64,000 nt of DNA, from assembly GCA_002269645.1 (NCBI GenBank), contig NIVC01001711.1:124001-188000 (forward strand), written 5' to 3'. The notes under the pieces were generated by a model. The model ran no database searches and was not told the DNA's origin. It worked only from the letters and a program-made list of their open reading frames with translations. This document shows positions 37,901 to 48,204 of this stretch, piece by piece. Source of the stretch: Macrostomum lignano (lineage: Eukaryota). How positions within the stretch are numbered: the stretch's first letter is position 1; each line of letters opens with the position of its first letter. The translations under genes were made by a program, and so were the position numbers.

Positions 37901-38250
37901 ACTACTAAGGACTGGCAGATCCGGGCGTTTTGCGAAGGTCCGTCGGGCTGATGTCGGCCTCTAGCACCGCGGCAAGATGCTCCCTCGGGGTGTACACCCG
38001 GGGTGTACCTCCAGCGGGGTGGGCGTCCAGCGAGTGTACCTCCAGCGGGGTGGGCGTCCAGCGAGTGTACCTCCAGCGGGGTGGGCCTCCCTCGGGGTGT
38101 ACATCCGGCGGGGGGATTCCCACTCGTGTGCACGCGGTTAGTGTTGGGGGAACCCCGATGCTGACGCAGCCCTGTACAGTGAGCATGCAGCCCTGTAGCT
38201 GGGGACAGAGAGCAGCCCCTGTAGCAGGAGGGGTAGTGCGTGGAGAGCCG
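37901..38250. repeat. Left TIR of the Maverick (near-identical core; degenerate extension to ~38430); contains ~31-bp G-rich tandem units
   Basis: Reverse complement of 47818-48204, which has extra tandem units. Confidence 0.92.
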
Positions 38251-38472
38251 TACAGAGGATAGAGAGCCCCGCCCCAGTTGCAGGGGACAGAGAGGCAGTG
38301 GGTGCGGAGGGACAGAGAGCAGCCCAGGCAGGAGGCGCGGGACAGAGAGGCGGTGAATCACACCCCCAGGAGAGAGCCGTACAGTGAGCTTCCCCAGGCC
38401 CGGGGGAGAGGGACGGACGGGCAACGTGTAATTTCAAACCCATAAATAGAAGCAGTGTACAAAACCCTCTGT

Positions 38473-39252
38473 ATGGAGAACATGGAGGCGGGTATAACTG
38501 ATAACCCCTATTTCAGCAACGAGAGCGTGTGCGCCAGAATACCCCTCATTGAAAGATTGTTATCAGACACTAGGAAAAGAATCGCGGGATTGTCCACAAA
38601 GGAGCGCTTAGAATTCACGTATCTAGCCAGGCTGGCATTCGTAACAGAAGTAAACATTGAGGAGAGAGAGGTGGCGTTGACTTGGGAGGAAGCAGAAGAA
38701 GCGATAAAAACCCGGTCCTGTATGGTCACAGCCAATCTATGGAGTGCGGCAATACACCTCAATGACACGAGGGGGTTAATTGACACAGAGTTTGTTAGGC
38801 AAGTTCACACACGCGTGTGCAGAGGACTGCTCCCGAATGCGGGATCGTATAGAATTAAGCACGCCAAGCCAGCAGGCGCGAGTATGTATTACAGCGCCCC
38901 AGAAAATATCGAACGGCAGCTGGTAAAATTAACTAGAGACATAAAAGAGCCACAAATCTTGCGTAATGCAGTAGTGACAGGAGCATATTTCCTAGAAAAG
39001 TTTCTCACCATACACCCCTTTAGCGACGGCAATGGTAGAACTGCTAGGTTGTTATTATCAAAGTTGCTCAACCGGATTCTGCCAGAACCCGTATCATTTG
39101 CGTATGCAAATAGAGACACATATCTCAACTGTCTTTACGAAGCGCGCAGCAGCAACCGGGGGCTCCTAGCGGCGTATTTACTTTTATCAATTGAGAGAAC
39201 CGTTCTACAGTGGAGGGAATGGTTGGAAATCTGTTCAGACGGCAGCCTATAA
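38473..39252 (+). CDS. Fic-domain protein (putative AMP transferase)
   Basis: Canonical motif HPFSDGNGRTAR; GSYR motif upstream; N-terminal EVNIEE...LTWEE resembles the class II inhibitory helix. Confidence 0.9.
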   Translation: MENMEAGITDNPYFSNESVCARIPLIERLLSDTRKRIAGLSTKERLEFTYLARLAFVTEVNIEEREVALTWEEAEEAIKTRSCMVTANLWSAAIHLNDTRGLIDTEFVRQVHTRVCRGLLPNAGSYRIKHAKPAGASMYYSAPENIERQLVKLTRDIKEPQILRNAVVTGAYFLEKFLTIHPFSDGNGRTARLLLSKLLNRILPEPVSFAYANRDTYLNCLYEARSSNRGLLAAYLLLSIERTVLQWREWLEICSDGSL

Positions 39253-39287
39253 ATAAATAAAATTTGGTATTTCTCAACAATATCGAA

Positions 39288-39641
39288 ATGTACTGGCAAT
39301 CGGAAATAGTGTACACCCACGTTGACAACGCAGTGCTGGAAGTGGGATATTGGGACCCAAACAAGCCGCGTTTCCGCATCCACTGTCAAAACTGTAGCTG
39401 TCCAGGAGCCGTGTTTAGTCGAGCACAATGGCATCGAATGAAATTTCTGGGCACTAGCTGCACAGATTACGATCTCGGAGGCGGCGCATCTATCAAAGTT
39501 ATCGACGGGAAGCGCCTGTACGTAAAAGGAGACTGCGAATTTCACCTGTCAGACAAAATACTTTGTGCAGTTGAAAAGAATAGAGTCGACAATTTCTTCC
39601 ACTATTTCTTTCTCGACGAATCTGACGAGTCAGAGGAATGA
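39288..39641 (+). CDS. PC4-like ssDNA-binding / transcription co-activator-like protein
   Basis: FRIH...GAVFSRAQWHRMK resembles PC4 GISLNPEQWSQLK; acidic tail; TATAAATAAA 40 nt upstream. Confidence 0.45.
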   Translation: MYWQSEIVYTHVDNAVLEVGYWDPNKPRFRIHCQNCSCPGAVFSRAQWHRMKFLGTSCTDYDLGGGASIKVIDGKRLYVKGDCEFHLSDKILCAVEKNRVDNFFHYFFLDESDESEE

Positions 39642-40153
39642 GCTGGATTTCTCGAGACTACCCGCTTTTATCGAGCAAAGAAAGGGCAGAGTACGAGACC
39701 CTGAAAAAGTCCACAGACTGGTTATGCATTTGTCACGGCAAACCAATTCCCGAACGATTAGTCACCTTTAATGTCGAGGTAGACGAAATTGGGCAAGGGC
39801 CTTACAACACCCAAGAATATACAGATGCCCGAATTGACTACTACTTTAGAGACAAGATGCATTTCAAAGCAAATCTTCAAAGAATGGAGCAGATAATTGC
39901 CCCAATATTACAAGAGGATCATCGTGAGAAAATACGGTACCGGAATCACCAGCCGATTGCTCCCTCGTGGACGGAACACCAAAGGATTTGGCGACCTAAA
40001 CACAGTAGACCAGTGCTAGCGAAGTTGACTATCAACCTTCACTGCAGCTGCATTAACGACACGCCTCAAACCCCTCGACCAGAAGATCGAAACAAAAGGT
40101 TTATTTTTTCCGGATTTCCAACACCGGAAAGTGTCGTTAAAGAAGCACTATAA
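39638..40153 (+). CDS. Hypothetical protein, 171 aa
   Basis: Intact ORF with ATGA overlap to the previous stop; no family recognised. Confidence 0.65.
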   Translation: MSWISRDYPLLSSKERAEYETLKKSTDWLCICHGKPIPERLVTFNVEVDEIGQGPYNTQEYTDARIDYYFRDKMHFKANLQRMEQIIAPILQEDHREKIRYRNHQPIAPSWTEHQRIWRPKHSRPVLAKLTINLHCSCINDTPQTPRPEDRNKRFIFSGFPTPESVVKEAL

Positions 40154-46428: not shown

Positions 46429-46862
46429 ACACGTTGGAAATTTTGGAACGTTTAAAACTACCTGTGGAAGTGCGCGTTTGCCCTCTTGACAGAATTCCTG
46501 CACCTGTTTACCCTGCTGCATATGTAATTAATTTTGACACGGGTAATCTGCCGGGCACCCACTGGGGACTGATTTGCCTACACGATGATAAGAGTGTGAC
46601 ATTTTTTGACCCCCTGTGTATTGAACCCGTGCCGGAATTGCTCTCGGCTTGGATCTCGAAGCATGTACATTCACCTGTTGCTATGAATCGCCACCCTGTT
46701 CAACACCCTCTAAGTGTAGCGTGTGGGCCGCATGTGATTTTTGTGGCCGAAAAGCACTTTTTAGAGGGGTTGTCGATTGAAAAGATTTTAAGGGAATGTT
46801 ACTCTACCAATCTGCTTGAAAATTATTTGATGGTTCGAAAACATGTTCTACGAATAAAATAG
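46425..46862 (+). CDS. Adenain-like cysteine (maturation) protease
   Basis: INFD...GTHW, FFDP, Q...SVACG catalytic motifs. Confidence 0.92.
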   Translation: MNTLEILERLKLPVEVRVCPLDRIPAPVYPAAYVINFDTGNLPGTHWGLICLHDDKSVTFFDPLCIEPVPELLSAWISKHVHSPVAMNRHPVQHPLSVACGPHVIFVAEKHFLEGLSIEKILRECYSTNLLENYLMVRKHVLRIK

Positions 46863-46896
46863 TTTTTAATATTTGGAGTGTCAACTCGCCCTGAAA

Positions 46897-47526
46897 ATGT
46901 ACCAAACAATTGATCCTGACGCTCTACAGTTTGCTCCAAATACTTCGGCGATTTTTGCTGGTGTTAACCAGAGCGGAAAAACAACTCTTGTTAAAGAATT
47001 GCTGCGAAACGAGTTTTTTCAGGACCCTAAGCCTGTTCGCATTGATTGGTTTGGGCACTATCCAGACCCGGAACTGTTTGAATTACCGTACCCTGTCAAT
47101 TTTCGCTCGTCTACATTTAACCCTGAAACCTATGTTCCCGCTCCGAATATTCTACTCGTTGTCGATGATCAAATGCACGCCATGGAAAAAAACGCTGCTT
47201 TTACCGCATTTTTCACTCGCAAAGTCAGCCATGTGGGATTCCGGCTTTGGTACCTTGTACAAAACCTGTTTGCCAAGGGCAAGGAGCACCGCACTCAATC
47301 CCTTAACGCAAACTACCTTGTATTGTTCCGCAATGTACGGGACGTTAGTACAGTCGCCCATATTGCAAAGCAGCTTGTCCCCGCTAACCCAAAAAGTTTT
47401 GTTCAAATGTACGAAGACGCCACTAGGGAGCCCTACTCCTACCTGATTGTTAATTGCTTGCAGAACGCATCTGTTCGCTACTATGCTAATGTGTTGGGGC
47501 GCTACCCCGTAGTTTATGCTAAATAA
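46897..47526 (+). CDS. A32/FtsK-like packaging ATPase
   Basis: Walker A GVNQSGKT, Walker B LLVVDD, SH...YLVQNLF...RTQSLNANYLVLF. Confidence 0.93.
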   Translation: MYQTIDPDALQFAPNTSAIFAGVNQSGKTTLVKELLRNEFFQDPKPVRIDWFGHYPDPELFELPYPVNFRSSTFNPETYVPAPNILLVVDDQMHAMEKNAAFTAFFTRKVSHVGFRLWYLVQNLFAKGKEHRTQSLNANYLVLFRNVRDVSTVAHIAKQLVPANPKSFVQMYEDATREPYSYLIVNCLQNASVRYYANVLGRYPVVYAK

Positions 47527-47817
47527 AACACTGTTGGAGAGCTTTGCTCTGTTTGCCGGATGGCCTGAACCTGAAACAACTGAATTACGTGTTTTTTCTT
47601 TTCAATTCCTCTGCAGCCTGGGGGCTCTCTATCACTCACCGCCGGTCTGTCCCTCTACCACCCCGGCCTGGGGAAGCTCTCTGTCCCTCCGTGTGACTCA
47701 GGCGGCGCAGGGTGCCTCCACGCACTCTCTGTCCCAGCACCCCGTGTCTCTCTGTACCCCGCCTCATACTGCTACAGGGGGCCGCCTGTTATCTGTCCCC
47801 TGCTACAGGGGGGATGG

Positions 47818-48204
47818 CGGCTCTCCACGCACTACCCCTCCTGCTACAGGGGCTGCTCTCTGTCCCCAGCTACAGGGCTGCATGCTCACTGTACAGGGCT
47901 GCGTCAGCATCGGGGTTCCCCCAACACTAACCGCGTGCACACGAGTGGGAATCCCCCCGCCGGATGTACACCCCGAGGGAGGCCCACCCCGCTGGAGGTA
48001 CACTCGCTGGACGCCCACCCTGCCGGATGTACACTCGCGGGAGGCCCACCCCGCTGGAGGTACACTCGCTGGACGCCCACCCCGCTGGAGGTACACCCCG
48101 GGGGAGGTGGTACACCCCGAGGGAGCATCTTGCCGCGGTGCTAGAGGCCGACATCAGCCCGACGGACCTTCGCAAAACGCCCGGATCTGCCAGTCCTTAG
48201 TAGT
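47818..48204. repeat. Right TIR of the Maverick (degenerate extension from ~47630)
   Basis: Reverse complement of the left TIR. Confidence 0.92.

Follow-up and report, generated by a model that had tools for sequence, protein, structure and literature searches.

Mavericks or Polintons (polintoviruses, adintoviruses) carry long terminal inverted repeats (TIRs), a 6-bp target duplication, a retroviral-type integrase, a double-jelly-roll capsid protein, a protease and an ATPase, and they are defined by a polymerase, the protein-primed DNA polymerase pPolB, and the integrase in one element. Non-autonomous Polintons and derivatives resembling miniature inverted-repeat transposable elements keep the ends and move by enzymes supplied in trans. 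Surveys filter on the co-occurrence of the core genes; in the accessible text of one survey, all five core proteins had to lie within 20 kb (10.1101/2023.08.22.554363). Under such a filter, split forms would be thrown out as broken copies of two kinds. Here, we describe an element of 10,304 bp at positions 37901..48204 of a 64,000-nucleotide stretch of Macrostomum lignano DNA, referred to as the window (GenBank assembly GCA_002269645.1, contig NIVC01001711.1, positions 124,001 to 188,000 of the forward strand). The family of this element, F1, has the integrase, the long TIRs, the 6-bp duplication and the capsid, protease and ATPase genes of a single autonomous Maverick, but no pPolB between its repeats. 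F1 is probably the capsid-and-integrase half of a two-component Maverick, the other half being a separate polymerase-only element with matching ends, family D. F1 alone lacks the polymerase that defines a Maverick, whereas F1 and D together hold the whole set.

Together, F1 and D have the gene set and the approximate length (19–20 kb) of one complete Maverick, including the PC4 and TBP-like genes found in a complete element of the same genome (C114, see below). Unlike in Mavericks, the polymerase and the integrase reside on separate elements, and the ends begin with ACTAC. The D polymerase gene contains five or six spliced introns, in contrast to intact vertebrate Mavericks, which are reported as intronless in the accessible text of PMC8097293. 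Bidnaviruses and the Drosophila Vesanto virus are pPolB DNA viruses whose segments have matching termini, and according to the accessible parts of the reports, a second segment is recognised by its matching termini (PMC8502044; PMC8363768). They are the nearest precedents, but their DNA is single-stranded and not integrated with target duplications. To our knowledge, they possess neither a double-jelly-roll capsid module nor an integrase. Non-autonomous Polinton derivatives exist in M. lignano too; the F1 and D halves differ from them in their complementary protein genes, which are conserved in two diverged families. Like F1, Polinton-like viruses and virophages that lack pPolB have a capsid module, and some of them rely on integration genes in trans, as stated in the available portion of PMC11296320. 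They carry another replicase, however, for example a primase-helicase, for which the frames of F1 are too small; no link of F1 to giant viruses was found. Zymocin-type yeast killer and helper plasmids are two linear DNAs of ~9 and 13 kb, one assisting the other (PMC13348850, accessible part). Unlike F1 and D, these plasmids are cytosolic, form no particles and do not integrate. A split Polinton was not found among the matches listed in the literature searched, which did not extend to Repbase, supplements and subscription papers that could hold these families. Likewise, the accessible parts of PMC11296320, 10.1101/2023.08.22.554363, 10.64898/2026.10.13.758929, PMC8097293 and PMC11131425 mention neither a two-component Polinton nor Macrostomum Polintons.

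The window element starts with ACTACT and finishes with AGTAGT. Its arms, at 37901..38422 on the forward and 47641..48204 on the reverse strand, were identical in 472 of 497 columns of a gapped alignment over ~520–560 bases, which confirms the TIR-to-TIR element described in an earlier note on this DNA. The note had also claimed a duplicated target. The sequence AAAGTC does occur on both sides, at 37895..37900 (forward strand) and 48209-48214, but the right copy is not flush, lying four bases beyond the element end with AAAT in between. The duplication was exact in eight of nine F1 elements tested, the displaced window copy being the exception. All genes of the element lie on the forward strand with intergenic gaps of at most 171 bases, leaving, as the note had stated, no room for a pPolB or a helicase. 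Nine PolB queries, including those of the polymerase families D and E themselves, retrieved from the element only one match of 23% identity (E 0.054). At E ≤ 0.001, no PolB was detected in 40 fetched stretches except for a 33-residue match in the flank of locus L110. Pfam returned no helicase or primase-polymerase match for the element, whose unassigned frames comprise 117, 171 and 180–226 amino acids (aa).

We searched the genome with the 100-base element end. Twenty-one of 25 fetched F1-ended loci were colinear with the window at 95–99% identity (13/16 and 8/9; one partly deleted), and the remaining four shared the ends only. The flanks of 22 F1 copies fell into 17 groups, ten of them with both flanks known, corresponding to at least ten independent sites. 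A terminal pattern search revealed 57 F1-type ends and none in the control. Among 18 end pairs on the same contig, 15 were separated by 10.3–10.75 kb, two by 13.9 kb and one by 18.4 kb; both 13.9-kb spans hold unrelated transposons and the 18.4-kb span is non-coding. The 3.4-kb inserts in two F1 copies, considered as possible PolB genes, turned out to be a P-element-like transposon and a non-coding repeat. The former is a THAP transposon located in the right arm of its host copy (L043:356-3298, G000:C4); its frame of 981 codons is open. The insertions of the PolB-less 10.3-kb layout are thus independent, and no sister copy with a pPolB was found, so that the lineage proposed in the note survived the comparison.

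A capsid search, in which 98 of 451 candidates were scored, uncovered a sister family, F2, with 86–89% identity to F1, the next best candidates reaching at most 33%. Ten F2 loci, some rearranged or partial, were colinear with F1 from the third open reading frame (ORF3) onward at ~75% nucleotide identity, and neither Fic nor ORF2 nor PolB was found in them. F2 ends start with ACTACG. The target duplications of ten F2 elements were exact in eight cases, exact in another when an extra terminal ACT is counted, and had one mismatch in the tenth. In a phylogenetic tree of the integrases, F1 and F2 formed one clade (100/100), set apart from the complete elements by a long branch. Public data hold a third capsid lineage, ~80% identical to both F1 and F2; relatives with gene context were found neither in viral contigs nor in JGI metagenomes.

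The genome contains many pPolB genes, and 91 of 974 candidates were scored. Two pPolB families, D and E, are elements of 8.5–9.8 kb with long inverted repeats. Of 40 PolB loci fetched, 21 showed both ends, 14 one end and five none. Between the ends of all 21 whole D and E elements, there was no match at E ≤ 0.01 to integrase, capsid, penton, protease, ATPase or TBP; the sole virion matches among the 40 loci lay outside the ends of one copy that is nested in another Maverick. The pPolB element with ACTACT-type TIRs that the note had proposed to look for in this genome exists as family D, devoid of integrase and capsid. All D (18/18) and E (5/5) elements with both ends have exact 6-bp duplications (two copies added from an earlier fetch), suggesting that an integrase acted in trans. 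D also has a gene homologous to the PC4 gene found in complete Mavericks (28%, E 4e-9). In the polymerase tree, D and E formed one clade (100), and a long branch separated it from the complete elements. In the D polymerase gene, the conserved exons are separated by five GT-AG gaps, whose length varies freely, and the E gene has donors at three of these intron positions. In public contigs from four runs, the two 3′ introns were skipped in 4/4 runs, two others in 2/4 and the fifth in approximately 3/4, and a sixth, unpredicted intron was skipped in 4/4; the spliced runs come from four studies. We conclude that the D polymerase is transcribed and spliced. Some D copies contain an unassigned 336-codon gene (L081:8648-9655) with an intron near its end, spliced in three of four runs.

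The link between the halves lies in their termini. In all four families, the terminal 31 bases are nearly fixed at positions 1–7 and 28–31 and highly variable at positions 8–27, far above the 1–5% variation inside the elements. In the window, this terminus (37901..37931, forward strand) consists of the ACTACT repeat, the hypervariable positions 8–27 and TTTT, and it belongs to a pool of variants common to F1 and D. The mean nearest mismatch between 31-mers was 4.0 for F1 and D and 3.4 for F2 and E, compared with 11.5–14 for the cross pairs (one F1 entry being the hybrid end at C150). By eye, at least six of 22 distinct F1 31-mers recurred exactly among D-type ends (the first 100 of 289 D and F2 ends plus the fetched loci), four of these six on elements with verified PolB. 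The window's own variant had no exact match there, the nearest one differing at two positions. An F1 arm at C150 consists of D-type bases as far as approximately position 45 and has its target duplication in common with the insertion it belongs to. The F2 and E families form a second pair that repeats the F1 and D arrangement with different ends. Thus, complementary essential genes on two replicons with matching termini, as in bipartite viruses, were found in both pairs, the match covering the outer 31 bases only.

In several D (L111, L117, L120, L122, L128) and F2 (L091/L092) elements, the left and right 31-mers differ at 8–19 positions although the target duplication is exact, indicating that ends were swapped before or during insertion. 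That the terminal variants keep a hairpin was considered and rejected, the mean energies being −1.8 for real, −1.7 for recombined and −1.5 for shuffled ends. ACTACT ends with other continuations gave 53 matches versus 17 in the control, and the true-looking ones that were opened represented D variants or non-coding elements. Non-coding or deleted elements of 1–18 kb with F1- or D-type ends are located at G000:C56:643541-661960, C190:160719-163952, C168:626685-627828 and C100:349358-356051. The one at C56 shows an exact target duplication and contains pieces resembling D and E interiors; this 18.4-kb F1-ended element was considered as a helper and discarded as non-coding. Ends of different families appear to be grouped within a few kilobases at G000:C382:259958-278560, C261:112484-139759 and C251:125759-143219.

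All five complete Mavericks with visible ends start with AGTAGT, in contrast to ACTAC, and three further complete families showed no ends. A satellite of a complete Maverick is expected to have its ends in common with a complete helper in the same genome, which was not observed for F1. The closest capsid genes in complete elements are 30–33% identical to that of F1, and for the protease and ATPase the identity to complete-Maverick genes is 25–42%. One complete 16.8-kb AGTAGT Maverick (G000:C114:460183-476983, L071-L073) encodes both a PC4 and a clear TBP (Pfam E 1e-23), the latter overlapping the ORF upstream of it, and the two genes recur in a second complete family.

The note had viewed F1 as a satellite-like lineage that borrows replication in trans. 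Its multi-copy, PolB-less nature and the replication from elsewhere hold true, but the likely helper is a polymerase-only element rather than an autonomous Maverick. As this helper itself has neither integrase nor capsid, the dependence is likely mutual and not that of a one-way satellite. A protein-primed polymerase initiates at short terminal repeats, and an integrase of the retroviral type recognises the terminal bases. In the proposed two-component Maverick, both halves would form free linear copies, on whose ACT-ACT ends the D polymerase would prime, and the F1 integrase would insert both. The F1 capsid would package each 9–10.5 kb half, the similar sizes fitting one capsid, and the ends would recombine while F1 and D are copied together. 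The TBP-like protein of F1, perhaps with the PC4 of D, would switch on the virion genes through their TATAAATA promoters. A more far-reaching version is possible but rather doubtful: an integrating double-stranded DNA virus with a bipartite genome, in which two ~10-kb segments are each packaged in the same type of double-jelly-roll capsid and integrate independently, the exchanged hypervariable 20 bases act as a tag that holds the segments together and matches polymerase and integrase to their pair, and late genes are switched on through an alternatively spliced TBP fusion.

The dependence might instead run one way, with F1 as a satellite borrowing a polymerase and D as a capsid-less replicon that is independent of F1, since any Maverick integrase in the nucleus would integrate it. 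This would fit the greater number of D-type ends (at least 77 among the first 100 of 289 D and F2 ends, versus 57 F1 ends), the older and more diverse D copies, the clear transcription of D compared with F1 contigs without a splice joint in four runs, and the complete Mavericks with integrases in the genome. We nevertheless consider it unlikely, because the AGTAGT ends of the complete Mavericks (5/5) share no terminal variants with D, F1 is the only integrase carrier found with the hypervariable ends of D, and the same pairing recurs in F2 and E. Both halves could also be defective derivatives of a complete ACTAC-ended Maverick or an exogenous virus, with the true helper outside the assembly. 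The same ends are often found on elements that are non-coding or deleted (18.4 kb at C56, 3.2 kb at C190, 6.7 kb at C100), which implies that the ends can be mobilised in trans; moreover, the searches scored a part of the candidates only and covered one genome. Yet no complete element with ACTAC-type ends was found among 57 F1 ends, 125 E ends and the first 100 of the 289 D and F2 ends, and seven opened spans of more than 12 kb (six E-ended, one D-ended) contained no F-type capsid or integrase. The split is also older than the divergence of F1 and F2, both halves have been under coding constraint since, and D and E have intron positions in common, which makes a hidden helper very unlikely.

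The displaced target duplication and the two broken frames might raise the suspicion that the window element arose by a single deletion or by mis-assembly. Colinear sister loci, at least ten sites that differ in both flanks (the 22 copies form up to 17 flank groups) and short-read contigs of run X6, which tile 38440-47700 without added sequence, refute this explanation, and even the nearest capsid genes of complete elements are only 30–33% identical. We therefore regard it as extremely improbable.

Several observations weigh against the two-component Maverick. Only 91 of 974 PolB and 98 of 451 capsid candidates were scored, and 19 of the 40 PolB loci did not show both ends. No more than ~31 bases of the long inverted repeats are common within a pair, and bases 32–50 of F2 match D instead of E; the pairing is therefore not exclusive. 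D and E are further apart (63–65% in PolB) than F1 and F2 (80–88% in the core genes), and their copies are more numerous and more diverse, the median inter-copy distance being 3.2% for D and 5.3% for E versus 1.2% for F1 and 1.3% for F2. In a quick tree of partial sequences, the D and E polymerases grouped with database proteins and not with the complete Mavericks of this genome, so that the halves may have separate origins, having met rather than split. The contigs of four runs that cover F1 show no splice joint at all and could represent DNA instead of F1 transcripts. Finally, complementation between the halves, particles and free DNA belong to the inferred part of the scheme.

The left part of the element encodes a Fic-domain protein of 259 aa with the motif HPFSDGNGRTAR (38473..39252; PF02661, E 3.9e-14), followed by ORF2 (39288..39641, 117 aa), ORF3 (39638..40153, 171 aa) and ORF4 (40246..40926, 226 aa unspliced), all on the forward strand like the features below. 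ORF2 and ORF3 have no assigned function. Fic and ORF2 are absent from F2, Fic being an accessory gene of F1 only, while ORF3 is kept in F2 at 50–68%. The note's labels for Fic, integrase, major capsid protein, protease, ATPase and TBP-like genes were borne out; the PC4 label for ORF2 was not (hhalign probability 0.2%), and the SSB-like label is unsupported for ORF4, whose model had a predicted local distance difference test score (pLDDT) of 38.9 without Atlas or PDB match. Behind ORF4 lies a TBP-like frame of 157 codons without its own ATG (40853..41326). All 14 PDB matches of this frame were TBPs (best E 0.0066); its Pfam TBP score of 21.3 stays below the cut-off of 22.9, which one outside homologue passes. 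Splicing of a predicted 67-base GT-AG intron (40786..40852) would fuse the frame in frame to the first 180 codons of ORF4 as exon 1. The donor, the acceptor, the 180-codon exon 1 and the 157-codon exon 2 are the same in F1 and F2 despite intron lengths of 67 versus 195–206 bases; in four outside homologues, the donor residues are retained and the linker varies. The spliced joint was seen in 0/4 runs, the contigs reading straight through the intron in three, and none of the public runs holding this stretch is recorded as RNA. The ORF4-TBP fusion is thus a prediction from sequence. F1 and F2 differ in the frame offset, which speaks against a programmed frameshift into the TBP frame.

Seven TATAAATA motifs (39248..45096), mostly 26–57 bases ahead of a start, lie on the coding strand and none on the opposite one (shuffle mean 0.17, maximum 2); an F2 copy has six. 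They are likely promoters. Of the transcription/AMPylation module that the note had assigned to the left arm, the TBP-like frame is kept in both families, but Fic and ORF2 are missing from F2, and the PC4 homologue sits on the polymerase element.

Two small conserved Maverick genes follow, of 129 aa (41365..41754; 27–34% to complete-Maverick genes) and, in the window copy, 193 aa (41757..42338). The integrase (42510..43589, 359 aa) is retroviral-type, with an open frame and D-D-E motifs (PF00665, E 1.7e-9). A 92-codon cysteine-rich frame (42414-42691) overlaps its start, 43 bases below a TATAAATA motif; most sister copies and F2 (88 codons) keep this frame open, unlike the window. The gene at 43593..44728, without a Pfam or library match, is a likely penton by position and size only and is split into three frames in the window copy. 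It precedes a small basic gene of 114 aa (44772..45116), which we take to be core-like and which had no library match. The double-jelly-roll major capsid protein (45146..46428) was assigned by fold, and its frame is broken once in the window copy. A capsid model based on a six-sequence alignment (pLDDT 63.5) matched PBCV-1 Vp54 (E 1.4e-16) and the mavirus major capsid protein (E 1.6e-14), and 866 relatives of the protein were retrieved at E ≤ 1e-30. An adenain-like protease (46425..46862, 145 aa) and a packaging ATPase with Walker A and B motifs (46897..47526, 209 aa), both assigned by motifs and homology, complete the set. The frame breaks in F1 copies may reflect sequencing error or decay; homopolymer errors were rejected as their cause, since 7 of 33 indels fell in runs of at least three bases versus a background of 22%.

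Elsewhere in the window, a 23-bp satellite of ~270 copies (30930-37720) lies directly left of the F1 element. The reverse strand of 27100-30600 holds a remnant of a different Maverick, including an ATPase-like frame (28101-28586), and shows a weak match to the C2506 family. A 17.4-kb region (8368-25776) is bounded by inverted arms of ~940 bases that are 99–100% identical, and behind each arm lie long GC-rich minisatellite arrays, oppositely oriented; the region looks like a foldback element.

If true, the two-component form would mean genome segmentation in double-jelly-roll DNA viruses, in parallel to the bipartite pPolB bidnaviruses. It would make the action in trans of Maverick polymerase, integrase and capsid, the bases that confer specificity, and particle formation testable in a laboratory animal. 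Polymerase-only DNA inside capsids, if found, would prove packaging in trans.

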